A DNA stretch of 64,000 nucleotides, taken from Chloroflexi bacterium UBA6622 (GTDB lineage: Bacteria > Chloroflexota > UBA11872). A program made the position numbers and the translations under genes. The stretch's first letter is position 1. Every line of letters begins with the position of its first letter. The stretch is taken from assembly GCA_002433065.1 (NCBI GenBank), contig DJHK01000015.1:3784-67783 (forward strand), read 5' to 3'. The notes under the pieces were generated by a model that searched no databases, had not been told where the DNA came from, and was given only the letters and a program-made list of their open reading frames with translations. Of the stretch, positions 3,056 to 39,693 are shown one piece after another.

Positions 3056-3101
3056 CATCAGCTAGGATCAGAACCAAGGACTCGAACAACGGGATTGCAC
3101 C

Positions 3102-7963: not shown

Positions 7964-8035
7964 ATCCCGTGAACCCTCGTGAAAACTTATAGAAAACACT
8001 TACTGACGAAAGTATATAGGCGACGCTCCGACTGG

Positions 8036-10386: not shown

Positions 10387-10416
10387 AAGAACTTTGCCTA
10401 AAGAACCCTGGTCATT

Positions 10417-12242: not shown

Positions 12243-12291
12243 TCTGAGAATTTCAAGATCGCTATGAGCGACCAGAGCCGTAGGGAAATTC

Positions 12292-14486: not shown

Positions 14487-14487
14487 A

Positions 14488-19635: not shown

Positions 19636-20843
19636 GCGGCCAATTGATCCGGGCTCAAAAACATCACGATCCTTTCGGCCCGCTTTGCCCAAGTCATATG
19701 TTCAACTTCCGCGCGCGCAACTTGCGCCAACCCACGGGCGAGCACATGATCATTTAACAGGCGGTTCACAGCATCAGCCAGCGCTTCAGGATCATCAGGG
19801 GTAACAAGAAGCGCATTTTCACCATCCCGCAAGATCTCGCGAAGCGAAGGTAAATCGCTAGCCACGATCGACCGTTGCGCCGCCATATACTCAAACAGTT
19901 TGAGAGGAGAGGTGTAACTGCGAGAAATTTCTTCACGGGCGCTGAATGGGATCACCGCAACATCAGCCGCAAGAAGATATTTACGAGCAAGCGAAGGTGA
20001 GAGATGGCCTGTTACGTGAATATTGTTATGGCCAGACGCAGCCGAACGAATGCGGTCAAGATCTGGCGATACACCACCAACGATATACCAGTGCACACTC
20101 TCATCCATTTGGTCAGCAGCCTCCACCAGGACATCCACCCCCTTCCAGGGATACAGATGCCCGATATAGCAGGCTATAGGCGCAGCTTCGGGCAACTCCA
20201 AATCTTGGCGTGCTTCTAACTGACCATCTTGTTCAAACGCTGCAACATCAACCCCATCGGCAGCTACTAGAACTCGGGAGGGATCAAATCCAGCATCCAA
20301 ATACCACTGCCGGAGCCCTTCGGTGATCGTCACTACGCCGTCCATGCGACGTACAGCCCACCAGTGCAATGCCGACGAAAACTTGGATCGAGGTACCGTG
20401 TGGGCCTCAAACGCAAACTTGGCCTCATGCCTCGTAAATATTCTGAGCACCGTAAGCGGCAAGAGATCGCGACTAATAACGATGTCCCCTCGCCATCGCT
20501 CAGCCATAAATGCAGCAGAAATAGTAAAGGTCCAAAGCTGCAAGAAGTGAGCCACCAATCGTATTGGCGCCACATTCAAGAAGGGCCAATCGAGAGTCAC
20601 TCGTTTAATCGCATCAATAGTCGGAAGTCCGACTAACCTGAAACTTCTGGCCACGTTGGCATAGTCGAACGGATCACCGACCCTTCGCATAGCAACCGTG
20701 TTCGCTCTCCGGGCATAGGCAAGCGTGACCTGCGCACCTCCACTAGCAAACGCCGCCGCCATATGCATGATCTGCATCGGATGAGCCCGCTCACTCGGAA
20801 TACGAGCATTGGCGATCATCACAATTCGCAAGGGATGACTCAT
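19632..20843 (-). CDS. Glycosyltransferase family 4
   Basis: LRIVMIANARIPSERAHPMQ N-terminus and SPLKLFEYMAAQRSIVASDLPSLREILRDGENALLV. Confidence 0.78.
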   Translation of the reverse strand: MSHPLRIVMIANARIPSERAHPMQIMHMAAAFASGGAQVTLAYARRANTVAMRRVGDPFDYANVARSFRLVGLPTIDAIKRVTLDWPFLNVAPIRLVAHFLQLWTFTISAAFMAERWRGDIVISRDLLPLTVLRIFTRHEAKFAFEAHTVPRSKFSSALHWWAVRRMDGVVTITEGLRQWYLDAGFDPSRVLVAADGVDVAAFEQDGQLEARQDLELPEAAPIACYIGHLYPWKGVDVLVEAADQMDESVHWYIVGGVSPDLDRIRSAASGHNNIHVTGHLSPSLARKYLLAADVAVIPFSAREEISRSYTSPLKLFEYMAAQRSIVASDLPSLREILRDGENALLVTPDDPEALADAVNRLLNDHVLARGLAQVARAEVEHMTWAKRAERIVMFLSPDQLAA

Positions 20844-20846
20844 GAA

Positions 20847-22649
20847 TTAAATCCGATATACAAGAGAAATCCTTGCTCCAGATTCGATCTGACCAAAGCG
20901 AATTCGACTCGATCGACGCGTCCATCGCACCTGAGCCTTAACTTTCAGCGCTTTGACCTTGACCGGTAATCGATACTGCACATCATGAAGTCGACCTGAA
21001 GCCTCGAGTTCATCGCGAACCAGCACGGATGTCTCATCGACAAGATATGTCCGACGAATCTCAACATTCGAACAGACGGTTCCGTCCCTATCAGCAATCC
21101 CAGACTTAATGACCAAAGAATCACCGTCAACATGGACAGTGCTTTTCGTCGCGTGGCTCGACGAACTACGACGATGTGCTCGAAACATCGGTAGAGAGAA
21201 GTGTCGCCAAATCAATCCTGCGGCATGTCGCCATCGACCGGCCCGGGCATGCGATCGAGCAATGTGCAACACGAACCGATTTTCACGGCCGAGACCACGA
21301 ACTGAACCATGACCAATCGATGGCCTGGACCGTCGGACCGACCAGGATGCTTCTGGTTCATCGGGTTCCGACTCAAACTGGATCCTATTTCGCCAATCGT
21401 CATCCTTGTTACCAACATAAACCAGGCCCCCACCGCCAACACGACCGCCCACAAGACGGTCAGCAGGGCACTTGTCAGTTCGAACAATTGCACACGCCGT
21501 TCGTGAACCGATCCGGGCGACACCAGCATCGGCCGCATGTGTCGGGCCAGAGGGATCAAGATCCGTGGCATCCACCTTTCGTTCATCGAGCTGCGCTGCA
21601 GCATACGCACGAGCAATCCAGGCCAAATCAGCCGTATGAAACACCCGACAGACAAAACCAGCGGACCCCGAAGTAGCTTCCAGAAATCCTGATGGGGTTA
21701 CAGCCGAAACACTCTGAGCCGCCACTCGACAAGCCAGTGGAATCATCGACTTTCGTCCATCGGTCGCGAGCACATAAGCATCGTACGCAGATGAGCCAGC
21801 TTCAGTGTCAGCGTCCCAAAACCACCGTTTCCCTTCCAATCCCAGTGGCTTAAGACCGTCGGGGCGAAGCACCGTACACAAAAAATCAGCACCAGCCCGT
21901 AAAGCATCCTCAAATTCAGCCTCAGCACCGAAGAGACGGAGTGCATAACGAGAAAACCCTACGCATCGACTGTGGTAATACACGGTTAGATCGGAAATAC
22001 CCACACCTTCACCAAGAGTTTCGGCGTCTTGGACATACCGAAACGAGCCATCGGGTCGCATCTCGGCTAAAGAACGATCAATCGCCTGTTTAACTGGTAG
22101 GCGCCAAACGGTCTCATCCAAAGCCACGGATGCCGCTGCCAAACCCATCGCTCCCCACAAGCGCTGATTAGTGACCGGCTTCGCGACAACGTTATGGACC
22201 AAATACGTCTCACAGCACAGTCGAATCGCCTCCTCGATGGCCTGACGTTCCAAAAGATCCAAGATATCTCCCGCATGCATTAGCAACGTAGCTAACGCAT
22301 CAACACATTCACCGGCATCAATAATATTCGTGGAGTTATTCCGAGAGTCATGGAGGCCAGGGAAAAACACCCAGGCGCCATCCGCCTCCGGATCTGGAGC
22401 TAGACGAGCCAGTACCACTCGAGCCGTCTGACGAGCCCTCGCAAGGTAGTGATCGTCACCCGTGTGCCGATGAAGAGCACAGTCGATGACGATGGATCTG
22501 GAAGATTTACCCGTGTGATCAACGCCGTGCTCCGGACAGCGCATATATCCGTAGTCATTACGCATCCGATTGAACAGGTCCGAAGCTGCCGATAACGCCT
22601 CCGCCGCATCCGGTGTCAGTGCCGAAACAGCAGGCGCACCGCTCGGCAT
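20847..22649 (-). CDS. Hypothetical 600-aa protein; possibly an alpha/alpha-toroid plus beta-sandwich glycan-modifying enzyme (heparinase II/III- or C5-epimerase-like)
   Basis: Long intact ORF tightly packed in the operon, with 3-nt gaps on both sides. I recognised no catalytic motif. The helical N-terminal two-thirds and the beta-rich, Arg-rich C-terminal third are judged from composition only. Confidence 0.35.
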   Translation of the reverse strand: MPSGAPAVSALTPDAAEALSAASDLFNRMRNDYGYMRCPEHGVDHTGKSSRSIVIDCALHRHTGDDHYLARARQTARVVLARLAPDPEADGAWVFFPGLHDSRNNSTNIIDAGECVDALATLLMHAGDILDLLERQAIEEAIRLCCETYLVHNVVAKPVTNQRLWGAMGLAAASVALDETVWRLPVKQAIDRSLAEMRPDGSFRYVQDAETLGEGVGISDLTVYYHSRCVGFSRYALRLFGAEAEFEDALRAGADFLCTVLRPDGLKPLGLEGKRWFWDADTEAGSSAYDAYVLATDGRKSMIPLACRVAAQSVSAVTPSGFLEATSGSAGFVCRVFHTADLAWIARAYAAAQLDERKVDATDLDPSGPTHAADAGVARIGSRTACAIVRTDKCPADRLVGGRVGGGGLVYVGNKDDDWRNRIQFESEPDEPEASWSVRRSRPSIGHGSVRGLGRENRFVLHIARSHARAGRWRHAAGLIWRHFSLPMFRAHRRSSSSHATKSTVHVDGDSLVIKSGIADRDGTVCSNVEIRRTYLVDETSVLVRDELEASGRLHDVQYRLPVKVKALKVKAQVRWTRRSSRIRFGQIESGARISLVYRI

Positions 22650-22652
22650 AAC

Positions 22653-23258
22653 CTAAATGCGCTCGCCGATCACGCGTGCTGGAACACCGCCTACGATGCT
22701 GTAGGGAGCGATATCTTCCGCTACCACTGCCCGGACTGCTACAACAGCGCCGTCGCCAATCGTTACGCCAGGAAGCACAACAACCTCGCTATAGATCATT
22801 ACGTCGTCACCGATGACGACAGGACTCTCCTCGATGGGCGCTTGCAAGATCGGGACATCACGACGACTGGTGTCATGACGGTGTGAATAAATCGTGGATT
22901 CGCGTCCAATATGCGAGTTTTTACCAATCGTGATTCCACCAGTACAGTCCAGCCGAACTCCAGATAAAACTTCCGTTCCAGAACCTATTTCAAGTGCCGC
23001 ATCATCCCGATAATCCGACTCGCAGCCAACCCGTACGTCACGCTTGATATGAACCCCAGCACCCATAGTGATTTTCAGACCACTGGGGTAGTAAAAACAA
23101 CTATCGATCTTGGCATCCGCCCCAACCTCAACACCGGCGGCACGACGAAGAAGCGCTGCCCTTAAGGTCCAAACCATCTGCTGATAACGTCGGAACACCC
23201 GAAAGTCCGGAAAGTGACCAACAAACCGTGCGAGCTGACGTGCAGGATCAGTCCTCAT
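22653..23258 (-). CDS. Left-handed beta-helix (hexapeptide-repeat) O-acyl/acetyltransferase
   Basis: Hexapeptide repeats ITIGKNSHIGRESTIY and VVIGDDVMIYSEVVVLPGVTIGDGAVVAVRAVV. Confidence 0.8.
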   Translation of the reverse strand: MRTDPARQLARFVGHFPDFRVFRRYQQMVWTLRAALLRRAAGVEVGADAKIDSCFYYPSGLKITMGAGVHIKRDVRVGCESDYRDDAALEIGSGTEVLSGVRLDCTGGITIGKNSHIGRESTIYSHRHDTSRRDVPILQAPIEESPVVIGDDVMIYSEVVVLPGVTIGDGAVVAVRAVVAEDIAPYSIVGGVPARVIGERI

Positions 23259-24394
23259 AACTCAGACTGAATTTCCGCCACCGAAGGAAAGTCAGGACGG
23301 TCTCCACGCCTGAGTGAATCAAACACCGCCACCAATTTTCCGACCAGCCCGTCGGCCCCATGCCCTTCAACCACTGACGTACGTAAACGACTTATAGTCG
23401 GATCGCGAAGATTTGGATGTAGTCCAAGAATTCCATCGACCCCACGAGCTAGTTCTGCAGGCGTATCACCTACCAAGAAATTGTTCGCCAGTTTGCCCAT
23501 AACATGCCGATACGAGCTGTTGTTGGTTATCACCGGAATCCCACACGCCATTGCCTCGAGCCCAGTCTTATCTAATGAAGGTTGCATCCGCCAGTTCACA
23601 AAAACGCTAAGAGACCGATAAAACTGAGCCATGCTATCTCCTCGAACTGGCCCAACAAACTCGACTGCGTGATCAACCGCGAGTTCAGTGGCCAAAAGCC
23701 GTAAATCCTTAACATATTGGTGATCGGCTGAGTAAAAAGGTTCCCCTGCAATCCTTAACGAGGCATTCGGGTAACCGTTATTGCGCAACGTAGCGAGCGC
23801 CCTGATGCCAGTGTCAAAACCCTTTAAAGGGGTAAGTCGACCAGCCATGCCAAGCACCGCTCCGGTCCCAGCCAATGACAGACCGGACGGAGCAAACCGT
23901 TGAGTATCGATCCCATGCCCAAGTAAGAATGCCCGATCGCTTGGGATCGGATAACTCTCCACGGAGGCCGTCACTGCCGCATTTACAATCCGATTGGCCC
24001 AAATAAGCGCTGACGACTTGCCATGGCTCGTGTACCAAAGGACTAGGGGCGCTCCGGCAAGGCGAGCAACTGGACCAATCGCCACTGCATACGCAGGAAC
24101 CATATGAGCGAACACTGCATTTACCCGGCCACTTGCCAACAAGGACACGCACGTCGCACCAAATTGGTAAACCCGGCGACCACGGGATCGACTGGATTCA
24201 CAGCCAAGACTATGGACGTACACGTTAGGGGGTAGCTCCATATCTACGACTCGACCAGCAAGCACATGAACAGATTCCACTCGCTTGGCTAACTCACCCG
24301 TCCAGTTATGCGCGACGGCCAAATTTACACTTGAAGAATTTAGCTCTTGTGTGACGAATAAGATCCGAAGACCCTGTCCAGTTCCATTAGTCAT
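23255..24394 (-). CDS. Glycosyltransferase family 4
   Basis: LRILFVTQELNSSS N-terminus, the GRLTPLKGF motif, and DKTGLEAMACGIPVITNN. Confidence 0.75.
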   Translation of the reverse strand: MTNGTGQGLRILFVTQELNSSSVNLAVAHNWTGELAKRVESVHVLAGRVVDMELPPNVYVHSLGCESSRSRGRRVYQFGATCVSLLASGRVNAVFAHMVPAYAVAIGPVARLAGAPLVLWYTSHGKSSALIWANRIVNAAVTASVESYPIPSDRAFLLGHGIDTQRFAPSGLSLAGTGAVLGMAGRLTPLKGFDTGIRALATLRNNGYPNASLRIAGEPFYSADHQYVKDLRLLATELAVDHAVEFVGPVRGDSMAQFYRSLSVFVNWRMQPSLDKTGLEAMACGIPVITNNSSYRHVMGKLANNFLVGDTPAELARGVDGILGLHPNLRDPTISRLRTSVVEGHGADGLVGKLVAVFDSLRRGDRPDFPSVAEIQSEL

Positions 24395-25514
24395 TTACTG
24401 ACATCCGTGCCAGTTTCCGATACGCAGCTGCATACGCCTCCAAAACTACCGACTTTTCAAACTGCACTGTCGATGCAGCCGCTGCAACCCCTACAGCACT
24501 CAGACCATCTGAATTCCCCAACGCCTCACACACGAGCGATGCTCCGGCTTCAGGATCCCACGGTAGTAACCAGCCATTCTCTCCATGGTCGATAGTTTCA
24601 GGCATGACCCCGACCGGCGTCGCAAACACCGCTGTCCCACAGGACATAGCTTCAAGACAAACGCGGGGCCCACCTTCGCTCAAAGATGGACAAACCAGGG
24701 CATTCACACCTCTATAGATCTCGGCAAGTTGATTGGTGGTTTCGAGCCAGCCCATGAATGTGACTTTCTTGAGAACCCCGACGCGTGCCAACTCAACCTC
24801 GAACGATCCACGTTCAGGCCCTTCACCAACAACAACAAACCTAGCCGAGGGCCATCTGGCTGCTACCGCTTCAAACACTTGAGCCACATACCGCAAATTT
24901 TTGTTGGCCACCAACCGGCCCACAAACCCCAAAGCGTATTCCTTGCTTCTGGTAGCAGGATGGAAAACTGATCGATCGATGTATGCCGACGAGAGCACAA
25001 GTATTCGACTCGTAGGAATGCCCCAACGGCGCAATATGGTTGGAACCTCCGAGCGATTTACAACACGAATAGCAACTGCACCGCGCGCTACACGGGTTAA
25101 GTACACGCGATAGATGATTTGCTCAAAAGGTTCCCACCACTGGGCTCGTCGAGGATGCCCAGGCACATGGTGGATTTCACTAACGTACGGCGTTCCATAC
25201 TTCCGCGACAGGAACGAAGCCGCACGTCCGTTTGAAAATATGCCGTAATCGTGGCTAACGATCAGATCGTGACCGTGCGCATGCATAAGTTCCGCACCGC
25301 GTTTACGTAACCACCACGTCTGTCGCAACCGAGACACTGGCGACGATTCAACAGAAACTCCATTGTGGGGATTCATCCTCGAGTTACTACCAACATTCGG
25401 GGTTAGGACATCTATCCGATCAAATTCAGTCGATAATCCTTCCAGAGTTGTTGCAAAAGGACCCGACCGACCAATCGCAACATCACGATCACCGCTGAGC
25501 ATAAGTAACTTCAC
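24387..25514 (-). CDS. Glycosyltransferase family 4
   Basis: FVGRLVANKNL and SEGGPRVCLEAMSCGTAVFATPVGVMPETIDHGENGWLL. Confidence 0.78.
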   Translation of the reverse strand: MKLLMLSGDRDVAIGRSGPFATTLEGLSTEFDRIDVLTPNVGSNSRMNPHNGVSVESSPVSRLRQTWWLRKRGAELMHAHGHDLIVSHDYGIFSNGRAASFLSRKYGTPYVSEIHHVPGHPRRAQWWEPFEQIIYRVYLTRVARGAVAIRVVNRSEVPTILRRWGIPTSRILVLSSAYIDRSVFHPATRSKEYALGFVGRLVANKNLRYVAQVFEAVAARWPSARFVVVGEGPERGSFEVELARVGVLKKVTFMGWLETTNQLAEIYRGVNALVCPSLSEGGPRVCLEAMSCGTAVFATPVGVMPETIDHGENGWLLPWDPEAGASLVCEALGNSDGLSAVGVAAAASTVQFEKSVVLEAYAAAYRKLARMSVND

Positions 25515-26674
25515 GCTGTTGGATACCCGGTACGTCGAGTCAACTTGAGCAAAATTTGCATGGTTTCATCGACCAATCGATCCCAAACAAAATGCTCGAG
25601 ATTCGTAGAAGCTGCCCCGCTTAACCGCTCACCAAACGCAGGGTTATTCAACACCCGATTTACCGCAGCAACAAATGATTCTGAGTCCCCAAATGGCACT
25701 AGGAGCGCATTTTTTTCATTCGTGAGAATCTCTCGGTTTCCACCAATATCCGTGGTCACGATCGGCGTCCCTATAGTCCGAGTCTCAATGAGCGTGTGAG
25801 ACAAACCCTCATACTCTGTATTCAGCACGAACACATCAGCCGCTCGAAGATACCTAGGCACGTCTTCATGAGCTACACGACCCACAAAACGAACTCGGTC
25901 AGTAACACCGAGATCTCGTGCACACTGTTCAAGAAATTTTTGCTCCGGTCCATCACCCACAACCACCAGGGTTGCACCCTTCGCAAATGCTGGAACCATA
26001 GCAACGAGATCATCCACACGTTTCCACGCATAGAGACGTGCAACCGTACAGACCACAGGTCCATTCAAGCCCAACTCTCGTTTAGCCTCGTCGCGTGTGT
26101 GCTCAATCAAAGGAGTTTCGGTTAACGCATTCTGAACAACTCGAATCTTTGATTCACTGATGCCCCAACCTTTTACGAGCTGCCCTACATATGAACTCGG
26201 AACAATCACCGTGGTCGCCAATCGACTATAGGCTCGCTGCAGAGCCCGAAACGCCCGCACCCTAAGCGGATGACGAGCCTCTTGAAAGGCTTCAATCCCA
26301 TCCCGTGTAAGTTCACGACGAATCGATGACTCCCAAGCCCAATCACCAACGACCTTAAGCACACGGGGACGTCCGGCCAACAATGCAGCGAGAGTGGAAG
26401 GAAGCTCAATCCCGTTGATATACACCACGTCGGACCTACGAGCTGCACGCCACGTGTACCAAAACACAAGCAAGTAGCGCCAGATCACTGGAGTGGCCCA
26501 CGACACCCGCTTTATAGGAAAAGGAGTTTGAACAAGTCCCTCGGGATCATCGGGACACACTACAGCCCGAACCTCATGCCCACGGTCGTAAAGAGTTCGG
26601 GCCAGGTGATAAATGTGCGTAGCAGGTCCGCCAACCGTCGGCGGAAATATGTTCGAGACAAATGTGACACGCAT
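25511..26674 (-). CDS. Glycosyltransferase family 4
   Basis: MRVTFVSNIFPPTVGGPATH N-terminus and YEGLSHTLIETRTIGTPIVTTDIGGNREILTNEKNALLV. Confidence 0.8.
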   Translation of the reverse strand: MRVTFVSNIFPPTVGGPATHIYHLARTLYDRGHEVRAVVCPDDPEGLVQTPFPIKRVSWATPVIWRYLLVFWYTWRAARRSDVVYINGIELPSTLAALLAGRPRVLKVVGDWAWESSIRRELTRDGIEAFQEARHPLRVRAFRALQRAYSRLATTVIVPSSYVGQLVKGWGISESKIRVVQNALTETPLIEHTRDEAKRELGLNGPVVCTVARLYAWKRVDDLVAMVPAFAKGATLVVVGDGPEQKFLEQCARDLGVTDRVRFVGRVAHEDVPRYLRAADVFVLNTEYEGLSHTLIETRTIGTPIVTTDIGGNREILTNEKNALLVPFGDSESFVAAVNRVLNNPAFGERLSGAASTNLEHFVWDRLVDETMQILLKLTRRTGYPTA

Positions 26675-26772
26675 TAGCTGGACGCTAGCATCGAGCCCGC
26701 AGAGTCACAACGTTAGCAGCTCAGGCTCAAGAAATTTCGATACCGAGCTCAGCAAACACAGCCCGTTGCAGG

Positions 26773-27876
26773 CTACTCGGTCGAAGATGCCTTAGAGACA
26801 TCATGAGAGCCATTCTGAAGGACCGGTAACGAACTCTCCCCCGTAACCACCCCACGAGCACTAGAAAACAGACTCCATGCAGCGCCATCATCCTGCCAAA
26901 CAGCATCGCATCCGCGACACAACTTGTAGTCCTCTAAGTTCCCGGCCACATGAGCCTGTCGAATCGCCTGGTATTCCTTACTGTTCCATATGTCCAGAAT
27001 CGATTGGGTCGACAAATCCCCCATAATCTGATCCTCAGCGAAGTCAGCGCAGCATGACGGAACCTTGCCATTCCAATATATGGCCATCGACTTCCACAAC
27101 CAATTGCACGGAAAGAAATTAGGCCCATGCGGCCGCGCCGTGTAGAAATCCGACGTCTCCATCTGTCCAGCCCACCCATGAGCCCAAAACGTATCCCACT
27201 CGTCTACGGGTAACCCGGTAAACCGATCAAGAAAGTGTTGGGGAATAGTAGGTAGCGCCCCCTTGGCATAACCCGAATTCCAGAGTTGAATCACCTGCAT
27301 CACCATGTAGGGACGTTTACCAGATCTAGTTTTCATCGCCCGTAATAATTGCAATACCCGCTCTAGAGTGTGATCAAACTTGGCACCCTTGCGCATTTCC
27401 TCGTACTCGTCAGGCTCACCAGAATCAAAACTGACAGTGAGCTTGCTCGGTCGAGCATCCAATAAAAGATCGATTTTCTCATCACGTAGTAGCGTGGCGT
27501 TTGTGTTTATATGCGCGGCTATGCCAGCTTCCTCGCACACCCGGATCATCTCGTAGATGTCTTTGTGCATCATCGATTCACCGCGGAAGAACAAATTAGC
27601 CTCCGTTGTGAAATCCTTGGCCTCATTAATGATCTTTCGAAAAAGGTCCAGTTCCATAAAACCGTTGTGCTCATTCGCACCCACACTTTGGGGGCACATC
27701 GGACAACGAAGATTGCAAAAGCTCGTGGGTTCAATGTGGAGCTTGAGAGGCCCATAAGGAACTTCCGTGGACCCTTTCATCCAGTGATAAATAAATCGAC
27801 CAAGAGACGGACGCAGGATCGCACGGTGACGACGATACTTGAGGAGCAAGTCTTTAGCTTGGCCGACTCTATTCAC
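26773..27876 (-). CDS. Radical SAM enzyme with C-terminal SPASM/twitch-like Cys cluster
   Basis: LKLHIEPTSFCNLRCPMCPQ contains the C-x3-C-x2-C radical SAM motif. GESMMH resembles the GGE motif. The C-terminal auxiliary-cluster cysteines are FFPCNWLW..VPSCCADF..LCRGCD. Confidence 0.8.
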   Translation of the reverse strand: MNRVGQAKDLLLKYRRHRAILRPSLGRFIYHWMKGSTEVPYGPLKLHIEPTSFCNLRCPMCPQSVGANEHNGFMELDLFRKIINEAKDFTTEANLFFRGESMMHKDIYEMIRVCEEAGIAAHINTNATLLRDEKIDLLLDARPSKLTVSFDSGEPDEYEEMRKGAKFDHTLERVLQLLRAMKTRSGKRPYMVMQVIQLWNSGYAKGALPTIPQHFLDRFTGLPVDEWDTFWAHGWAGQMETSDFYTARPHGPNFFPCNWLWKSMAIYWNGKVPSCCADFAEDQIMGDLSTQSILDIWNSKEYQAIRQAHVAGNLEDYKLCRGCDAVWQDDGAAWSLFSSARGVVTGESSLPVLQNGSHDVSKASSTE

Positions 27877-28106
27877 GAAGCGGTATCAACCGTCTCGCCG
27901 TTCGGCGGAATTGCCTCATCCCACAGCATGTTAGGGATTCCATCCTCAACTTTGTAACCGTAGCCACAGACCGTGCATACCAGCATCTTTCCACTTACGC
28001 GCAGCACACCGTCATCACGACTATGCTCATCGTTCACACAACGAAGCATCGCTAAGAAATCATCAGGGATGATTGACGAAGCCTGGGAATTGTCAGGATT
28101 GGCCAT
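27873..28106 (-). CDS. Trm112/YcaR-like small protein (DUF343)
   Basis: 77 aa. LAMLRCVNDEH..LVCTVCGYGYKVEDGIPNMLWDEAI matches the Trm112 family C-terminal Y-x-[IV]-x-D-G-I-P-x-[ML]-L motif. The first C-x-x-C pair is degenerate. There is a 4-nt overlap with the radical SAM gene. Confidence 0.7.
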   Translation of the reverse strand: MANPDNSQASSIIPDDFLAMLRCVNDEHSRDDGVLRVSGKMLVCTVCGYGYKVEDGIPNMLWDEAIPPNGETVDTAS

Positions 28107-28141: not shown

Positions 28142-30388
28142 CTAGAGCATGAAGTGAAGCGTGTCAAAAACAATCAGCAGAGACGCAAAGCTCATAACGG
28201 CTCCAACTTGCATTACTCGCGCCGTCCGTGAACGTATAAACATTTTCTTGGTTAAGCCAATCCACGCACCGAGCGCAAGAAATTGTAGCCCTAAGAGGAT
28301 TATGGCTACCCAGATCAACACTACCGGATAAGCGAGAAAACTTTCGGTTAGTCCCATCGACCAAAAATCAAGTCCAAGACCATTTTCTGGACGACGAGGG
28401 ATCGCATCGACACCAAATCGAGACCACGGTGTACGGCTTAAAGCATCGGCCAAAAAATCGGTTCGGTCGGGTGCAAGAAGATTCACAGCGTCGGCTCGCA
28501 ACAACCACGCATGACCAAGTAGGGGTGAAAACTGGTAAGAGTAGAGAACAGCCGCATAATCGCCCTCAGGTTGGATGGACGACCACGGCTGGTAGTCCGC
28601 ACCACCATAAATCGCACCGTTCAGAGGCACTGCGCCAGCCACTTGCTGTTGGAATACGTCTAGATAGCCCGTGAAATCCTTTGACACCCCCATAAGTTGT
28701 GGGACGACACTAATTGCTACCGTCAGAGCGAGCACAACCTTTAACAACCGCCTACGCGAACAACTAAACATGTGCTCAATGAGTGGTGCACCCAAAACAA
28801 CAAGGAAAGGTAGCGTGGGGACTAGATACCGAGGCCCCCAAGCATTACCGCCGTACCACACTTGCTTCCGGCTATATAGCAGCACATACACAATCGGAAT
28901 AGCAATAAAAAAGGCTGATCGCCAGCCATGACGACGGATAAACCACGGTATAACTGGAACAGTTAAAAGAAGGATTGGGTTGTACCACAACACACCCTTC
29001 CCCCAACTCGTGAGTAATCCCCCCAAACCAAGACCGAAAGGTAGCTCTAGCCACCCGCGCTGTAGACCACCGAGCAACTCCCGCTCGTAGAGCAATCGGA
29101 AATCAAAAACCAACCCCGCAACAAGAAGTACCGCAGGAACAATCAACAGGAAGGGAGCCAGCAAAATCATTTGCAACTGCAGCGAAGACCTAAAGCCAGC
29201 AAACCACCCATGTTTCCTACCTTCTCGTAAGAGAATCGCCAACAAAAAGACGGGGATTGCAATAACAGAGACATATTTGGTTAGTACCGCTGCAAATATG
29301 GCTGAACCCGCCAAGAACACATACCGGCGGCGATTGGTGAAATCAAAAACAAGAATCAGCCACACAGTAGTCAGCAGTAATGTCGTGACTAGAGGCTCAG
29401 CAAAATCATATTTGGCGTAAGGCCATGCCATAGTGCCCAAACCATAAATAATGGCTATAACAATCGACACCTGTTCCGAATACCCCAAACGTCTAACTAT
29501 TCGAAAAACCAAAACCGCTGCGAAAGCCGTGATTAGCGCATTGGCTACAGGCACCCATAACCGACGAAAAAACTCCTGATTCTGTCGCTCGGACCAGACA
29601 CGACCGACCCCAGGCCCATCTATCCACCGACCTCCAACCATCCGAAGAGCTAAGCCATCGACGTAAAAGTTTCCGGTCGATCGTAAATATGCAACCTCAG
29701 CGCTCACGAGATCCAAAGGCGGATCGAACTCCCATGTCGCCGCGTAATAGTAGGCCCGGGAATTACCGATATGCCTAGCAACTGGTTTTGGTTGTTCATG
29801 CTGAATTACTGCACGAACATCGCCTCGATCGTATGCCCACTCTGCTGTCTCAACTCCGACACGAATAGGGTAAGTCGTAACTTCCCCCGAAGATTGAACT
29901 AGCGAGACCCGAGCGATTTCAGTTCCCTGAGCAAACTCTGCGCTGAGCCCACTATGTGAAACGAGGGTCATTCGATCGTAGGTACCCGACTTAATAGAAA
30001 GATCCAACCTTTCTTTAACGCCGTGACCATCCGTCCCACCAATTGGATGAAAATTGACAAGCAACACATCGTGTTCTGCAAGAGGAATACGATCCCGTTG
30101 CGGTGCCGAAAGAGCGATAGGCTCGGCCAGTGCCACGAAAGGCAGTAAGACTGTAGGAAGACCTACACCCCACCTGGCAAAGTTCTTGTTTTGATCCCTC
30201 AGGTACGCATGGCCAGGATCAACCATCGCACTCTTGGCCATCTCAAAGGCAAACGTCCCGTCAGCGCTATAGCCAGCCCCATTACGCCCCATGCCTAGCG
30301 TCATTGCATAAATTGAGAACATGAACAAAAAAATCAGTAGTGCAGGCCGACAGTTCACCCCACCAATAAGTGAACGCATCCTATTCAT
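28142..30388 (-). CDS. GT-C-fold-like polytopic membrane glycosyltransferase (GT39/ArnT/PMT_2-like) with a large soluble insert
   Basis: 748 aa. After TM1 comes an acidic first loop (YSADGTFAFEMAKS), then a soluble segment of about 180 aa (aa ~93-275), then more than 10 TM helices and a C-terminal region. The family assignment rests on architecture and composition, not on a diagnostic motif. Confidence 0.5.
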   Translation of the reverse strand: MNRMRSLIGGVNCRPALLIFLFMFSIYAMTLGMGRNGAGYSADGTFAFEMAKSAMVDPGHAYLRDQNKNFARWGVGLPTVLLPFVALAEPIALSAPQRDRIPLAEHDVLLVNFHPIGGTDGHGVKERLDLSIKSGTYDRMTLVSHSGLSAEFAQGTEIARVSLVQSSGEVTTYPIRVGVETAEWAYDRGDVRAVIQHEQPKPVARHIGNSRAYYYAATWEFDPPLDLVSAEVAYLRSTGNFYVDGLALRMVGGRWIDGPGVGRVWSERQNQEFFRRLWVPVANALITAFAAVLVFRIVRRLGYSEQVSIVIAIIYGLGTMAWPYAKYDFAEPLVTTLLLTTVWLILVFDFTNRRRYVFLAGSAIFAAVLTKYVSVIAIPVFLLAILLREGRKHGWFAGFRSSLQLQMILLAPFLLIVPAVLLVAGLVFDFRLLYERELLGGLQRGWLELPFGLGLGGLLTSWGKGVLWYNPILLLTVPVIPWFIRRHGWRSAFFIAIPIVYVLLYSRKQVWYGGNAWGPRYLVPTLPFLVVLGAPLIEHMFSCSRRRLLKVVLALTVAISVVPQLMGVSKDFTGYLDVFQQQVAGAVPLNGAIYGGADYQPWSSIQPEGDYAAVLYSYQFSPLLGHAWLLRADAVNLLAPDRTDFLADALSRTPWSRFGVDAIPRRPENGLGLDFWSMGLTESFLAYPVVLIWVAIILLGLQFLALGAWIGLTKKMFIRSRTARVMQVGAVMSFASLLIVFDTLHFML

Positions 30389-30409: not shown

Positions 30410-31990
30410 TCAGTTATCAAAGAGGCCCGCCACGAGCTCAAGAAGACGCATACGGAACGCTTCAGCACTAAACTTCCTACTCGATATTCGAGCCCGGGCA
30501 GCCATCGAACTGCACAGCTCCGGGTCACGAATTAATTGCCACGTACGCTCACGCAGATTCTCTGCTTTAGACCAAACAAAGCCATCGTGACTATCAGTCA
30601 CTAGTTCTGGTAGTCCCCCTTGGTCTAACACAACAGGTACTGTTGAACTCGCCATGGCCTCAACAACTGAAATCCCAAAATGCTCAAATCGGACTGGATT
30701 TCGATCCGCTCGCTCCCCATATCCCGCGGCATGCCAGTAAATACGAGCATCACCGTACATCTGGCGAAGCTTATCGAAGGGCACATCTACCGCAAATTCA
30801 ATGGGATACCCCTCAGCCCGCCGCCTCAACTCTTCTGTGTATGCGACGTCAATCGCTCGTCCACTTTGATGTCCGGCAAGACAAAATTTCCAACCATCTA
30901 GGCCTTCGCGACACATACGCTTGAACTGATCAATCATTAGTCCATGCTTTTTCTCATGCGTACCTCGAAAAAATCTTCCCACCGTCAGTATTGTGTGTGT
31001 CTTGGCGCGTGCCTGCGCCCAACTGATGTCGACCGGTGGATACAGGATCGGCCCGCTTATCCCCCAGTACACTTCCATCCAATGCCGACTGTATTTCGAA
31101 ATCGGACAAATAACGTCATATGTATCAAGATGATCAAGGGAATAAAACGTGGGCAGGCCTTCAAGCCGGAGTCCAAGCTCACGAAACGCCTTTCGAAACA
31201 TGATTTCGTATAGGTAGTGGCGCAAATGTCGAACCCTTACGTCGGTGACGGCTAGGCCTACCTCCCTGTTGTCAGCACCCTCAAACCGATCGATTGGATT
31301 AAACGTCGGCGATTCAAGAACTAACTCGACGGTGTTCCCATGCATACGACTCGGATCGATATCGATCTGCCAAGTTTCAAAAGATCCAGGATTGGGAGGA
31401 AAGCTACGTTCAGCAATAACCTCACCGTCAACGAGACATCGGACCGGAAGCTCCACATCCTCTCGAAAGTTTCCTCCAACGATCTCGATGGAGGCGCGTC
31501 GAGTCGACGACGGAACTCGAACCCTGATATTCGCTTGCCCGGTAGCGTAGCGAAACCAACCGGAACCAAGTTCCTGAACGTCGTAAAACCCATCCAACCA
31601 TTCGGGAAGCAGGAGTTCGCGCATAAGGAATCGACCGATAGTCTGTCGAATCATTGCTCCTCGACTTCGATCGATAGGGGAAGGAAATAGAACCAGCATC
31701 ATGCTGTGATCAGCTTCTGAAGGCTGGTTCGTCATAAAAGATGAGTTGATAAATAGATCAAACTCACGCGTAAACGCCGAGAACCGATTCGGTGGTAGAG
31801 CAGGAATGACTCGAACCGTCACGTTACTCAGATCAATGTTTAAGGCATCGGAAAGTTCTTCCCGGGAAACAGGTCGATGAGTCACCAGTTCAGTTTCGAA
31901 CCGCTCTGAGAGAACCTTTGCGGCCATAGCAGAATGTCTTTCCCCACCACCTTTTTGATGGAGCCAACGGTTGTACACCGCCGCTTTCAC
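30410..31990 (-). CDS. GT4-type glycosyltransferase carrying a ~120-aa inserted accessory module
   Basis: C-terminal FEHFGISVVEAMASSTVPVVLDQGGLPELVTDSHDGFVW (E-x7-E region). The N-terminal half is interrupted at aa ~131-253 by a module that ends ADNREVGLAVTDVRVRH. Confidence 0.72.
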   Translation of the reverse strand: MKAAVYNRWLHQKGGGERHSAMAAKVLSERFETELVTHRPVSREELSDALNIDLSNVTVRVIPALPPNRFSAFTREFDLFINSSFMTNQPSEADHSMMLVLFPSPIDRSRGAMIRQTIGRFLMRELLLPEWLDGFYDVQELGSGWFRYATGQANIRVRVPSSTRRASIEIVGGNFREDVELPVRCLVDGEVIAERSFPPNPGSFETWQIDIDPSRMHGNTVELVLESPTFNPIDRFEGADNREVGLAVTDVRVRHLRHYLYEIMFRKAFRELGLRLEGLPTFYSLDHLDTYDVICPISKYSRHWMEVYWGISGPILYPPVDISWAQARAKTHTILTVGRFFRGTHEKKHGLMIDQFKRMCREGLDGWKFCLAGHQSGRAIDVAYTEELRRRAEGYPIEFAVDVPFDKLRQMYGDARIYWHAAGYGERADRNPVRFEHFGISVVEAMASSTVPVVLDQGGLPELVTDSHDGFVWSKAENLRERTWQLIRDPELCSSMAARARISSRKFSAEAFRMRLLELVAGLFDN

Positions 31991-33348
31991 TGCGACTCCA
32001 AAAAAGGATTGAGCTCCCGCCCGTCTAACGGAGCATGACGACCTTCATTCACCCGCAGTTGAAACGTTTTGGGAGCAGCCGTTACAACTTGTAACAGGGC
32101 CCGTGCACGGGCCAGAGAAAGAGCTATAGACGCCCCGTCTAGCTGCAAAATGCCAACTTGTGCATCATTCCAAGCGTACTTTGTGGCTGCAGCCATATGA
32201 CGCAAAGTCCAAAGAAACGGTGCATTCTTAGTAAGCATGCGTAGTTTTCCGAACTCAACATTTCGGGTAAAACCTGGCGACCATTCTTTGCTAAACGCGG
32301 CATGTTCGTGACGCACAACCGAGGAGGGCTCGTAACAAAAGACCCATCCGCGTCTACGAGCCCTCCATGCAAGATCCGCGTCCTCGTAGTACATGAAAAT
32401 CCCATCGTCTAGATAATCCAGCCCGTCCAACATGTCCCGGCGATACAGAACCGCTGCACCTTTTGGGGCGAAAATTTCACACCGGTCGTGGAATGCCGGG
32501 CTATCCCAAGCCGACCACGGAACTCCTTCGAGAACACGAGTGCCTCGATCACGCATCGAACCATCAGGTAAAGGCACAATCCCGGCACTCTCGATCACCG
32601 GCCGCGCCATCGTCGAAACAACAGCGCTCTTGAAAGGAATCTCATTTGTTGTCCGCCCTGGATTCAACTCCACGTGTCCAACCTCACAATTTCCAACAAG
32701 AACTTTTACAGGCACCCCGTGACGACCATCACCGCCAGCCAATTCCAACTTCATAAGAGTGGAACCTTCAACCACCGGCAGTGAGAAATCGACACAACTC
32801 ATTGACCAACGAAATGCACGTCCACCGTCATCCCGCTCCACACCATAAGCACCATTCGTAACGTCGGCCTGACCGACATCTGATCGAAGACCATATATCC
32901 GAATTCCAAGTCTTCGAGCATCCGAACCAGAAGGAACAAACTCGGGAACCTCAAGACGGATCGGCAACCTGTCGTGAAGGTGAAGAATTTTTGGTGCAAC
33001 ACCTCCGACTGATGAATCTTCAGTTAACCGGTCGACAAGCGGCTTTAGCCAGTTAGGGTCAACAATGGTGTCCGGATTTAACAGGCCGACATACGGCTCA
33101 TTCGCCACCCGTAATGCCTGATTGTTGCCTCGAGAGAATCCGACATTTTCACCATTCTTAATGACATCAACTGACGGGAATTCCTGACGTACTCGGTCAA
33201 CAGAATCATCTGTCGAAGCGTTGTCTACGACTGATATCCGAAGATCTGGATACTTGGTTTCGGTAAGACTTTTCAAACAGCCTTCAATTCGACCCTCGCC
33301 GTTATAGTTCAGCACAACAACCCGAACAGGGGGAAGTTTTTTAGTCAT
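31987..33348 (-). CDS. GT2-family glycosyltransferase (rhamnosyltransferase-like) with an inserted accessory module
   Basis: VRVVVLNYNG, VVDNASTDDS, GFSRGNN, LNPDT and YYEDADLAWRARRRGW are GT2 (GT-A) landmarks. A non-GT2 insert lies at aa ~125-245. Confidence 0.82.
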   Translation of the reverse strand: MTKKLPPVRVVVLNYNGEGRIEGCLKSLTETKYPDLRISVVDNASTDDSVDRVRQEFPSVDVIKNGENVGFSRGNNQALRVANEPYVGLLNPDTIVDPNWLKPLVDRLTEDSSVGGVAPKILHLHDRLPIRLEVPEFVPSGSDARRLGIRIYGLRSDVGQADVTNGAYGVERDDGGRAFRWSMSCVDFSLPVVEGSTLMKLELAGGDGRHGVPVKVLVGNCEVGHVELNPGRTTNEIPFKSAVVSTMARPVIESAGIVPLPDGSMRDRGTRVLEGVPWSAWDSPAFHDRCEIFAPKGAAVLYRRDMLDGLDYLDDGIFMYYEDADLAWRARRRGWVFCYEPSSVVRHEHAAFSKEWSPGFTRNVEFGKLRMLTKNAPFLWTLRHMAAATKYAWNDAQVGILQLDGASIALSLARARALLQVVTAAPKTFQLRVNEGRHAPLDGRELNPFLESQ

Positions 33349-35051
33349 TCCACCCGAATAGAGCGCACAGCAAGCCCCAGCGGCCTAGTGTCAGTATCAA
33401 GACCGATGTCGGCTGGCACTAGCGGATCTTCGACTTCTATGACAAGTTCATGCGTCTCAGGACTTATCACAGGGTCTAGTGGAATAACGATGTCTTCAAA
33501 ATCCATCCCGTGTACAGGAACTGTGGCGATATGACGACCGTTTACAGTCACCGATGCCCGTGTGGTTCCTCGTCCATGCAACGGACGACACGCGGATAAA
33601 ACCAATGCCCCTTGGCCAACGTCCTGCCTGACGTAGGCAACAGCGCGTGGCGCAGTCCAACGAATGTGTGGAGGCCAGTCTTCAGCCGGAAACCAGCCTT
33701 CACCGAGCCATTCATCATCCCGAGAACCCATGATCAACTCTTCCGGTGGCAGAGTCCAAAAAGGGCCAGCAGCCTCGGTCATCATGTCGGGTTGTAATAT
33801 TGGCTCGCCGGCGACCTGAAGTTCGTCTTCGTGAGCAGCCGTCGACACGCGCCATCTGGCAGGAATAACAGTCACACCACGTAATCCAACAGCTGCTTTA
33901 CCCACGAAAAAAGTCATAGCATTGGGCCAAATGTGAAATGGGCGCATCCTGTCAGCCAATGGCCACACCCCAAGTGAAACCTTATAGCTTCCAGGGCCAA
34001 GCGGCAGAGGGCCAAGCTCACACTCGACTCGAGTTCTACCGGGTTGGAGTTCGGTCGGACCAATTGTTGTCGCTGTCGAAGTTTCGTGAATCAGCAGCCC
34101 ATCGCTTCGTCGAACAGCAAAGCCAACAACGACGTCCTCAAAATAACCGCTGGAATCCAACTCGAGCTCAAGCCTGAAAATATTTCCCGGTAGATAAGCG
34201 TAGCGTTCAGAACCCGTGTCCACATCACGAGCAAGCGCCGCTCGAATCTGGACTTCACCGGTACCGAGTTCGGTCAATTCATTGCTTGCAATCTGACTCT
34301 CGGCGTGGCCAGAACCGCGCATATGCGCGAGATAATCTTGAATGACCTCACGTGGATTCCCCTGAGCACGGACCTTGCCACTATCAACCCACACGACACG
34401 GTCACAAAATCGTCGAACTTGAATGGGATCGTGAGAAACAAACACGATTGTTTTTCCGCGCTGCTTGATCTCGGCGAGAGCGTCATAACACTTCGCGGTA
34501 AAGCTCGCATCGCCAACAGCAAGAACTTCGTCAATTAAGAGGATGTCTGGATCCAAACTGATAGCAATTGCGAATCCCAATCGCATGAACATTCCCGACG
34601 AATAGTGCCGAACAGGTGTGTCAATAAAGCGCTCAAGTTCAGCAAACTCAACGATCTGCTTATAGCGCCGTCGCATTTCTGCCCGCCCAATCCCAAGAAA
34701 CGAGCCATTAAGGAAAATATTCTCCCGCCCTGTCAGATCGGGATGCATCCCAGCACCTAGCTCAAGAAGGCCAAAAACCTTTCCGTCCAACCTAATTTCC
34801 CCTGAGGTCGGAGAAATAGTTCCGGCCAACAGCTTGAGGATTGTGGTCTTTCCTGACCCGTTCGGCCCAATGATCCCAACCGTTTCACCCTCTTTCACCG
34901 TTAAGTCCACGCCATCGAGGGCCCAGAACTCTTCGTGCTGAATCTGGCGCCGACCGAGTAGCGCTAACGCCATGCCCTGCCATGTACGAGTCGATTCATG
35001 CCGAATCGAAAATCTCTTACGCACTTCTTCTAGAACTATTACGTTCGACAC
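33345..35051 (-). CDS. wzt: ABC transporter ATP-binding protein, Wzt/TagH-type, with a Wzt_C-like domain and an extra C-terminal module
   Basis: Walker A GPNGSGKTT, signature YSSGMFMRLGF, Walker B LLIDEVLAVGD, H-loop VSHD. Residues ~262-385 fit the Wzt C-terminal beta-sandwich pattern (..LPLGPGSYKVSLGVW). Residues ~447-568 form an additional module. Confidence 0.85.
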   Translation of the reverse strand: MSNVIVLEEVRKRFSIRHESTRTWQGMALALLGRRQIQHEEFWALDGVDLTVKEGETVGIIGPNGSGKTTILKLLAGTISPTSGEIRLDGKVFGLLELGAGMHPDLTGRENIFLNGSFLGIGRAEMRRRYKQIVEFAELERFIDTPVRHYSSGMFMRLGFAIAISLDPDILLIDEVLAVGDASFTAKCYDALAEIKQRGKTIVFVSHDPIQVRRFCDRVVWVDSGKVRAQGNPREVIQDYLAHMRGSGHAESQIASNELTELGTGEVQIRAALARDVDTGSERYAYLPGNIFRLELELDSSGYFEDVVVGFAVRRSDGLLIHETSTATTIGPTELQPGRTRVECELGPLPLGPGSYKVSLGVWPLADRMRPFHIWPNAMTFFVGKAAVGLRGVTVIPARWRVSTAAHEDELQVAGEPILQPDMMTEAAGPFWTLPPEELIMGSRDDEWLGEGWFPAEDWPPHIRWTAPRAVAYVRQDVGQGALVLSACRPLHGRGTTRASVTVNGRHIATVPVHGMDFEDIVIPLDPVISPETHELVIEVEDPLVPADIGLDTDTRPLGLAVRSIRVE

Positions 35052-35894: not shown

Positions 35895-36026
35895 GTATAG
35901 CCCAAGCTAGGGACCTAGAGATATTAGCGCAGCCAATAGGAAATCCGACGTATTGACCTCGCGTGGTACGCTAATCACACTACGGTCCCGATGAGAGTCG
36001 GGAGCCCCTTGGAGCTCCGTTCGCGC

Positions 36027-36638
36027 ATGGAAATCACGTGGGTCGGAGGCAGTTGCTTTCGAATCCGCGGTCGGGAAGGCTCGATAGTCACCGATCCTCA
36101 CACGTCTAAAGAAACCAAGAAGTCGGCTTTCCCAAAAGCGGACCTAGTTGTGGTGACTGATCATACGATGGCCGAAAATGCCGAAAATTGTGTGCGTCCC
36201 AATCACCGTGAATCTCCACCGTTCGTCGCCTTTGGACCCGGCGAATACGATGTGCGCGGCCTGTATCTTCACGGTGTTTCCAACCAAGACGCTTCTACCG
36301 ATGCCTCCACGATATTCGCGATGGACATCGACAGAATGACCCTAGCCTTCTTCTCACGACCGTCGTTAACCTTTGAAAACGAGCTTCTTGATGAATTAGG
36401 CACAATTCAGATATTAATCGTCAACGCTGACACAGGGATCGAGCAATTGACGCCTCTTATCAGCAGAATAGAACCAAACATCGTGCTTCCCTTTGGCAAC
36501 AGCACCACTCAAACATGGATGGAAGTTGCCCAACAACTAACTGAAGACCATCTGACGTCCGAAGCCTCCCTTAACGTCACTGCATCAACACTCCCTGAAC
36601 CAATAACTACATGCGTTTTGACGGAACGTGCCGCATGA
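36027..36638 (+). CDS. MBL-fold (Lactamase_B_3 / UPF0173-like) protein with a degenerate metal motif
   Basis: MEITWVGGSCFRIRGREGSIVTDP is a typical N-terminus for this fold. The H-x-H-x-D-H position reads VVVTDHTMAEN. Start ATG 36027 is preferred over ORF-track 35991. Confidence 0.5.
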   Translation: MEITWVGGSCFRIRGREGSIVTDPHTSKETKKSAFPKADLVVVTDHTMAENAENCVRPNHRESPPFVAFGPGEYDVRGLYLHGVSNQDASTDASTIFAMDIDRMTLAFFSRPSLTFENELLDELGTIQILIVNADTGIEQLTPLISRIEPNIVLPFGNSTTQTWMEVAQQLTEDHLTSEASLNVTASTLPEPITTCVLTERAA

Positions 36639-36668
36639 CCTCAAATCCATATCAATGAGTGGCACTCA

Positions 36669-39693
<3,025 letters not shown>

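Follow-up and report, generated by a model that had tools for sequence, protein, structure and literature searches.

Three consecutive genes of a glycan-biosynthesis operon in Chloroflexi bacterium UBA6622 encode proteins that carry copies of one autonomous β-sandwich domain of ~130 residues. The genes lie in a 64,000-nucleotide (nt) stretch of contig DJHK01000015.1 (positions 3,784 to 67,783 of the forward strand; assembly GCA_002433065.1), which we call the window, and code for the exporter ATPase Wzt, a glycosyltransferase of family 2 (GT2) and a glycosyltransferase of family 4 (GT4). The domain, hereafter the module, forms the C-terminal tail of Wzt and interrupts the catalytic fold of both transferases, in one of them with its strands in swapped order. 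We hold with moderate confidence that each copy binds the nascent glycan common to the three proteins, so that synthesis and export would be coupled through the substrate. A preliminary description of this DNA had noticed the recurring module and had suggested that it physically tethers the two transferases to the exporter. The three consecutive proteins are as it described them, and the nucleotide ranges that it quoted equal its residue ranges exactly. Its interpretation as a whole is partly supported: the module is real, conserved and structurally interesting, while the proposed function is plausible but unproven.

In a direct BLASTP comparison, the Wzt tail and the GT4 insert shared 29% identity over 133 amino acids (aa), with a pairwise E of 5e-7. 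The GT2 insert matched the other two copies weakly (E 0.057 and 7e-4 in a two-sequence search) and was not detected by a two-sequence profile of the Wzt tail and the GT4 insert, its detection requiring a deep family profile; a word-indexed homolog search with the Wzt tail returned just two near-identical fragments. We therefore built a seed profile from the Wzt tail, two close homologs and the GT4 insert, and used it for an exhaustive HMMER search of 1.84 billion representatives. A first family profile, made of 150 domain copies drawn from the matches, gave 162 bits for the Wzt tail, 77 bits for the GT4 insert and 20.6 bits for GT2, and matched nothing else in the window. A second, independent profile was made of 146 copies from unrelated proteins, the window's close relatives having been taken out against circularity. 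With this profile, we obtained 156.8 bits (E 1e-47) for the Wzt tail, 57.6 bits (E 4.5e-17) for the GT4 insert and 20.3 bits (E 1.5e-5) for GT2, the best reversed-sequence controls reaching 3.9-4.6 bits. No other open reading frame (ORF) of the window was significant in the family-profile scans, which rules out further module-bearing proteins there. At the level of alignments, hhalign paired the GT4 inserts with the family (Prob 99.5, E 1.1e-22, 128 columns) and directly with the GT2 inserts (Prob 97.2, E 3.2e-11).

Given the weak pairwise BLAST values of the GT2 insert, one could argue that the segments are not homologous and resemble each other by chance or composition. The likelihood of such an artefact is negligible. 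Profile scores of 57.6-156.8 bits stand against at most 4.6 bits for reversed sequences, and hhalign gives each of the three pairings a probability of 97-99.5%; these values and the independent profile refute it. Besides, the same pattern recurs in 120 GT2 homologs and, judged by length, in 120 GT4 homologs, and the AlphaFold models of the Wzt tail and the GT2 insert are both confident and predominantly beta. The recurrence claimed in the preliminary description is thus borne out, and the profile alignments that it had proposed as a check are significant for the three segments.

The copy in GT2 departs from the others in the order of its strands. An ordinary profile matches this protein as two swapped pieces, with aa 134-155 on positions 116-137 of the hidden Markov model (HMM) and aa 164-248 on positions 21-105. 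The C-terminal D-x-R-x-LG strand of the family (aa ~128-155) therefore comes first and the N-terminal part of the family (aa ~164-245) follows. All of the 120 GT2 homologs examined showed this swapped order, and both pieces score well in distant homologs (for example, 18.5 and 21.4 bits in P0224). When columns 104-139 of the family alignment were placed ahead of columns 18-103, the column-permuted profile recognised GT2 as a single continuous domain (21.7 bits, E 4.7e-6). The GT2-insert alignment paired with the permuted family at Prob 98.9 (E 3.6e-17, 108 columns), compared with Prob 96.8 (E 2.9e-10, 79 columns) for the unpermuted one. AlphaFold2 modelled aa 120-262 of GT2, using 43 homologs, as a mainly beta domain of nine strands and one short helix with a predicted local distance difference test (pLDDT) of 92.3. 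At the sequence level, then, the GT2 copy is a circular permutant, and the permuted or partial arrangement suspected in the preliminary description resolves into the former. The 'last' strand is joined to the 'first' segment by just ~8-10 residues, so the native N- and C-termini would have to adjoin in space. Adjoining termini would also be a precondition for inserting a domain of canonical order into a loop, as in GT4.

Regarding the insertion sites, the module of Wzt is extra to a complete Wzt_C domain (Pfam aa 261-384), which it follows, and it interrupts the folds of both transferases; the preliminary description was accurate on both counts. In GT2, the alignment to the GT-A domains of chondroitin synthase ends at aa ~115-120 and GT-A similarity returns at ~294. 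The LNPD motif (aa 90-93) stands at the DXD position, aligned with LDCD/LDSD of chondroitin synthase, and the module starts ~25 residues past it. This insertion point is best explained as the junction between the donor-binding and acceptor-binding halves of the enzyme. The N-terminal half of the window GT4 is too divergent for Pfam, and alignments to ordinary GT4s by hhalign (global and local), like a profile search of the PDB, covered aa ~285-526 alone. In its orthologs, positions 1-76 of Glyco_transf_4 (P0385 aa 14-81) and positions 1-109 of Glyco_trans_4_4 lie ahead of the module, and positions 129-170 of the N-domain profile lie behind it (P0367 aa 259-297). The Glyco_transf_4 domain is thus split, so the module interrupts the N-terminal, acceptor-side Rossmann domain of GT4. 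The best 120 full-length GT4 homologs, down to 33% identity, all measure 500-562 aa, and the insert, whose presence was judged by this length, is therefore universal in that clade. These results support a location of the module in or beside the acceptor-binding part of the fold in both transferases.

AlphaFold2 predicts the Wzt tail (modelled as aa 438-568) as an eight-strand β-sandwich with one short helix (pLDDT 94.9). When we compared the model with the PDB using Foldseek, the top matches were carbohydrate-binding modules (CBMs) of families CBM35, CBM36 and CBM6 and carbohydrate-binding domains of BcsB, with E from 3e-4 to 4e-3 and TM-scores of 0.45-0.60; the top structures were 2w3j (CBM35), 1w0n and 7ay3 (CBM36), 1uxx (CBM6), 8j3x, 9fmt and 5eiy. 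The module is accordingly predicted to have a fold of the CBM6/35/36-like class, a resemblance that is no proof of function, and the β-sandwich proposed in the preliminary description fits the models. An alignment of 20 sequences shows no variation at G15, R27, D117, R119 and G122 and a conservation of at least 90% at W16, E20, W28, L121 and A124. The shared landmarks listed in the preliminary description are therefore a true family signature.

The preliminary description could name no established family for the module, and on this point it does not stand. The HMMER search defines a family of 368 representatives of 50%-identity clusters at E<=1e-3 (38 at E<=1e-10), which overlaps Pfam DUF7024 (PF22895). 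Among 82 members scanned, DUF7024 recognised eight, with a best E of 2.1e-15. In the two that we checked, its matches, of 51.6-57.3 bits, coincide with module copies (P0042 aa 734-854, profile positions 22-144 of 145, and P0037 aa 574-693); the window-seeded profile retrieves both, together with P0033, at E<=1e-10. Because of this coincidence, and going by sequence, the module is a divergent relative of DUF7024, so the family is already catalogued, if only as a domain of unknown function, and is not nameless. Since DUF7024 reaches just those eight members, the family described here is a wider superfamily around it. The module has the same length as DUF7024 (~130-145 aa) and is likewise associated with glycan enzymes. 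It differs in that the three window copies have no Pfam match: they miss the DUF7024 gathering score (24.4 bits), no Pfam family was found for the excised segments at E<=10 or in the module regions of the full-length proteins, and no NCBIfam model covers the module. We found no paper on DUF7024 or PF22895 that describes an insertion into GT-A or GT-B enzymes or a circular permutant.

After screening 148 representatives of the family, we counted one copy in 69, two in 41, three in 20 and at least four in 18, so that tandem copies (2 to 7) occur in 79 of them. The last copy reaches the C-terminus in 122 of the 148, and single internal copies are rare. The partner domains among the 82 members include methyltransferases (10), Wzt-type ATPases with ABC_tran and Wzt_C (8) and sulfatase-like enzymes (6), besides GDSL esterases, radical SAM/SPASM enzymes, Wzy_C, PMT_2 (GT-C), GT1 and GT2. 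Nearly all of these partners act on glycans or lipid-linked glycans, and the hosts are predicted on both faces of the membrane. In the ATPase P0022 (424 aa), a TagH/Wzt-type nucleotide-binding domain (NBD) is followed directly by the module, without Wzt_C; in this architecture, the module therefore occupies the usual site of the substrate-recognition CBM. In P0070 (1170 aa), one module lies between GT2 domains in a protein with three such domains and a coiled-coil region, an arrangement reminiscent of ruler-type polymerase-terminators.

Proteins such as P0070 could be taken to mean that the module has no ligand and is a structural or regulatory element, which drives oligomerisation, sets geometry or chain length as a rigid spacer, or is a simple passenger. 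β-sandwich inserts can indeed drive the oligomerisation of GT-B enzymes. The DUF1975 domain of TarM and GtfA is an all-beta domain inserted on the acceptor side of a GT4, in the N-terminal Rossmann domain; a part in oligomerisation or acceptor engagement is attributed to it, and in TarM it is a trimerisation hub. The window GT4 is like these enzymes in architecture only; the fold family is different, and DUF1975 had no Pfam match in the window GT4 or in its excised insert. The invariance of the charged and aromatic signature residues would suit a structural role. Nevertheless, the signature is kept strictly across very different hosts and across the circular permutation, which points to a functional site or a fold constraint, and tandem arrays are atypical of rulers. 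We regard a ligand-free role as very unlikely.

The same invariant residues would also suit a ligand common to the whole family, such as a pyrophosphate-lipid head group. The module could then attach to the undecaprenyl-pyrophosphate end of the intermediate, or to the surface of the membrane, and so localise soluble enzymes to where synthesis takes place. In agreement with this, Wzt, GT2 and GT4 have no transmembrane-like segments, which rules out their anchoring by transmembrane helices, and yet they must work at the membrane. On the other hand, Wzm already keeps Wzt at the membrane, and an anchor would be superfluous in the many family members that are integral membrane proteins (PMT_2, Wzy_C, sulfatase-like), which carry several copies all the same. 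Besides, the nearest folds are those of soluble-glycan binders. Hence, an anchoring function seems to us distinctly unlikely.

We then compared the locus with others, reached through GT2 orthologs at 60%, 52% and 39% identity (loci L001, L003 and L004) or through divergent tail-bearing Wzt proteins (L006 and L007). The order Wzm, Wzt with the tail, GT2 with the permuted insert and GT4 with its insert is kept in all five, and wzm and wzt are neighbours in the window and the syntenic loci alike, except in L001/L002, where a GyrI-like gene lies between. In L001, L003 and L004, the trio is always followed by the 748-aa membrane protein, the 77-aa ORF and the radical SAM/SPASM enzyme found in the window. 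In L004 (11031-12263) and L007 (18577-19833), the gene after GT4 encodes a class I methyltransferase of ~410 aa with a C-terminal module (97.6 and 110 bits, respectively), which makes four consecutive module-bearing proteins; the methyltransferase gene is absent from the window. Methyltransferases are an enzyme type that caps chains in Wzt-dependent pathways, and this one is a candidate chain-capping enzyme. Elsewhere, locus L005 has a distant GT2 with the permuted insert and no Wzm/Wzt nearby, and L009 has a B12-radical SAM enzyme with the module beside a tail-less Wzt; the radical SAM protein P0026 is a further carrier of the module. In locus L008, which lies on a short contig, neither the normal nor the permuted profile matched the GT2 (2656-4029) beside the tail-bearing Wzt P0038 at E<=1e-2. 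Possibly some tail-bearing Wzt loci do without the complete trio; alternatively, the L008 insert diverges too far to be detected.

Wzt tails are 52-75% identical among the close loci (L001, L003 and L004) and 33-48% identical to the divergent tails of L006-L008. GT4 inserts show 36-60% identity among the close ones and 21-30% to those of L006 and L007. Between hosts, module identities are 18-32%, with no locus-specific co-variation visible. The modules therefore group by host and not by genome, as expected for ancient paralogs that were each retained with their host, and a recent duplication within the operon or a concerted evolution of the three copies is ruled out. The named orthologs come from metagenome-assembled genomes of Chloroflexota and Anaerolineae, with a few from Actinobacteria, and the clade in which the cassette is conserved is probably Chloroflexota. 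The chromosomal neighbours are also constant: a divergently transcribed Lactamase_B_3 gene, CTP synthase and adenylosuccinate synthase, found in the window at 35991-39693 (+ strand), recur in L001, L003 and L004 over the range of 39-60% GT2 identity. This points to vertical inheritance of the cassette and not to a mobile island.

The presence of the same module on every soluble component of a cassette that appears translationally coupled, and the conservation of all copies over long evolutionary distances, are what one would expect of the tether of the preliminary description. In that case, modules would bind each other or a common protein partner, and the Wzt dimer would be the platform on which GT2, GT4 and any methyltransferase of the cassette gather into a physical complex for synthesis and export. 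The carbohydrate-binding domains of Wzt do dimerise, and elongation and export of the chain show an obligatory coupling in some serotypes with ABC-transporter-dependent O-antigens. Such coupling has been reported for Klebsiella pneumoniae O2a (PMC11231755). Several of our results speak against a tether, namely the module on the GT2 of L005 without the transporter, its presence on a radical SAM enzyme beside a tail-less Wzt in L009, the long tandem arrays on predicted extracytoplasmic enzymes (sulfatase-like, PMT_2, Wzy_C), and the 18-32% identity between hosts within a locus without co-variation. The occurrence of the domain where no transporter lies nearby, and on extracytoplasmic enzymes, makes a direct tether less favoured, and we consider it unlikely.

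According to these results, the binding of a glycan is the best supported function, in view of the CBM-like fold, the tandem arrays, the glycan-acting hosts, the placement on the acceptor side and the position of a carbohydrate-binding domain in some ATPases. A common glycan ligand is favoured over a dedicated protein partner because the hosts are unrelated, lie on both membrane faces and frequently have tandem arrays, and because of the GT2 of L005 and the lack of concerted evolution. The hosts in the window would be cytoplasmic proteins acting on one lipid-linked glycan, and each copy would bind the nascent polysaccharide through its repeat unit or a feature common to it. The copies on the transferases would hold the growing acceptor chain near the active site, which could give processivity or alternation between GT2 and GT4. 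The copy on Wzt would be a second, chain-directed site beside the cap-reading Wzt_C. Synthesis and export could then be coupled through the shared polymer, without direct contacts between modules.

A number of observations weigh against glycan binding. The conserved polar signature (E, R-W, D-x-R-x-LG) is common to hosts of very different glycans, and this invariance is less easily reconciled with a variable sugar epitope than with a metal site, a shared ligand other than a glycan, or a structural core. β-sandwiches also serve in protein-protein, lipid-binding and purely structural roles. The match to the CBM folds is moderate (TM-score 0.45-0.60, root-mean-square deviation 4-8 Å, 6-19% identity), and the family profile search found no sequence relatives in the PDB, where the matches were chance ones to glucose dehydrogenase at E 0.24. 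Foldseek with the GT2 insert gave no significant match in the PDB (best E 4.7e-3, TM-scores of 0.2-0.38), an order-dependent aligner being expected to fail on a permutant. We found no paper that mentions DUF7024 or PF22895, a domain that is itself uncharacterised. Finally, the GT4 copy appears to be without the ~12-residue P-x-E-x-W-P-P loop that bears the conserved Glu, and its 'GWFRY' seems to merge the motifs G-W-Y and R-W; binding may accordingly not be identical in the three copies. This is a tentative observation from the MAFFT family alignment, from which the HMM alignment differs.

A bolder version of glycan binding, which we put forward tentatively as a possibility of lesser probability, is that the module is a portable 'polymer handle'. 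Every soluble component (both transferases, the exporter ATPase and, in loci that have it, the capping methyltransferase) might attach to one nascent chain or to the other components and so form a processive assembly line in which the chain is passed from the enzymes to the pump. The permutation in GT2 might then be an adaptation that turns the same binding surface to the GT-A active site. If this were true, lipid-linked glycan intermediates would have a new family of cytoplasmic CBMs in the DUF7024-like domains.

In order to contextualize these readings, we compared the module with known domains. CBM6, CBM35, CBM36 and the BcsB domains, which share a galactose-binding-like β-jelly-roll, are the best structural matches; they are similar in size and tandem arrays are common among them. 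They differ from the module in sequence (the 6-19% identity given above). No Pfam CBM family (CBM_6, CBM_35 and similar) matched the full-length proteins or the excised segments of the window, and the sole CBM-type signal of Pfam was a sub-threshold CBM60 in one family member, P0052. Moreover, classical CBMs are found on extracellular glycoside hydrolases, whereas the module is found here on cytoplasmic biosynthetic enzymes and an ATPase.

To our knowledge, the coordination of polymerisation, termination and export is known for a few proteobacterial O-antigen prototypes only. In those prototypes, a coiled-coil ruler and Wzt_C do the coordination. Wzt_C (PF14524; Escherichia coli O9a, K. pneumoniae O12 / Raoultella terrigena, Aquifex aeolicus) is, like the module, a C-terminal β-sandwich on Wzt, whose place after the NBD is taken by the module in P0022. 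It recognises the capped terminus of the glycan and acts as an export checkpoint (PMC11231755, PMC9445017). The two domains have no detectable sequence relation (Wzt_C region against the module family: hhalign Prob 0.5, E 0.11), and an origin of the Wzt tail as a duplicated Wzt_C is thereby ruled out. Structures of Wzt carbohydrate-binding domains are absent from the top 50 Foldseek matches of the module, and the module also occurs on transferases, which is not known of Wzt_C in the prototype systems. Another CBM-like domain on a biosynthetic enzyme of a Wzm/Wzt-dependent pathway is that of the K. pneumoniae O7 terminator ORF6, predicted to be immunoglobulin-like and suggested to recruit the substrate (PMC11231755). 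In 2024, the Whitfield laboratory stated that no other terminator had yet been found to contain a CBM (PMC11231755). The ORF6 domain differs from the module in being immunoglobulin-like by description and in belonging to a single enzyme, not to a transporter and several enzymes. We found no account in the literature of a distinct CBM-like domain common to the exporter, both polymerising transferases and a methyltransferase. If the proposed glycan binding is true, a second, unrelated CBM-like domain would provide a different, substrate-mediated strategy of coupling, and the sizeable, uncharacterised DUF7024-like family would gain a testable function. In any case, a natural permutant in a GT-A enzyme beside a canonical insert in a GT-B enzyme is a clean case for studies of protein evolution and engineering.

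The module-bearing trio stands at the head of a long minus-strand operon for glycan biosynthesis, in the order Wzm, Wzt, GT2, GT4, polytopic membrane protein, 77-aa ORF, radical SAM/SPASM enzyme and more GT4 genes (Table 1). An ABC2_membrane permease beside an ATPase with ABC_tran and Wzt_C, followed by GT2 and GT4, identifies a Wzm/Wzt export system. The NBD of Wzt is of the TagH/Wzt type in NCBIfam, where the best matches, TagH and galactan Wzt/RfbE, are both sub-threshold; aa ~385-568 have no Pfam assignment. The GT2 assignment rests on the Glycos_transf_2 match and the DXD-type motif, and that of GT4 on a C-terminal Glycos_transf_1, with the N-terminal Glyco_transf_4 detected in orthologs only. 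The stop of wzt overlaps the GT2 start at 33345-33348 (ATGA, 4 nt) and the stop of GT2 overlaps the GTG start of GT4 at 31987-31990 (GTGA, 4 nt), which suggests that the three module-bearing proteins are translationally coupled. The L001 ortholog of the 748-aa membrane protein gives a weak PMT_2 match.

Table 1. Positions in the window of the operon genes and of the three module copies
Feature	Position	Strand	Supporting match or remark
Wzm, ABC-2 type permease of the glycan exporter, 280 aa	35052..35894	-	Pfam ABC2_membrane, E 4.6e-14
Wzt, exporter ATPase, 568 aa: NBD, Wzt_C, linker, tail module	33345..35051	-	Pfam ABC_tran aa 45-176, Wzt_C aa 261-384
Module copy 1, C-terminal tail of Wzt, aa 432-568, canonical strand order	33348..33758	-	156.8-162 bits to family profile
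GT2 glycosyltransferase (GT-A fold), 453 aa	31987..33348	-	Pfam Glycos_transf_2 (PF00535) aa 10-115, 78.9 bits, resumes aa 294-350
Module copy 2, GT2 insert, aa 121-245, circularly permuted by sequence order	32614..32988	-	Swapped-order matches; permuted profile E 4.7e-6
GT4 glycosyltransferase (GT-B fold), 526 aa	30410..31990	-	Pfam Glycos_transf_1 (PF00534) aa 329-501
Module copy 3, GT4 insert, aa 122-254, canonical order	31229..31627	-	57.6-76.8 bits to family profiles
Polytopic membrane protein, 748 aa, possible GT-C transferase, without module	28142..30388	-	NCBIfam LA_3751/LA_3752 putative glycosyltransferase, weak, 35 bits
77-aa ORF, without module	27873..28106	-	No Pfam match in the window copy; L004 counterpart annotated Trm112p
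Radical SAM/SPASM enzyme, 367 aa, end of cassette, without module	26773..27876	-	Pfam Radical_SAM and SPASM

Further glycan genes lie downstream on the minus strand (~8000-26700), with many GT4 genes and a hexapeptide acyltransferase. They include a Wzx-like flippase (Polysacc_synt_3) at 14488-15999, an 875-aa YfhO-like membrane protein at 17065-19692 and a 600-aa protein without Pfam match at 20847-22649, all on the minus strand. Because this second set of glycan genes contains a flippase, a flippase-dependent pathway may abut the ABC-transporter-dependent one in the window. Finally, every 2-kb bin of the 64 kb has a negative GC skew and a positive AT skew, despite a switch of the coding strand at ~36-49 kb.

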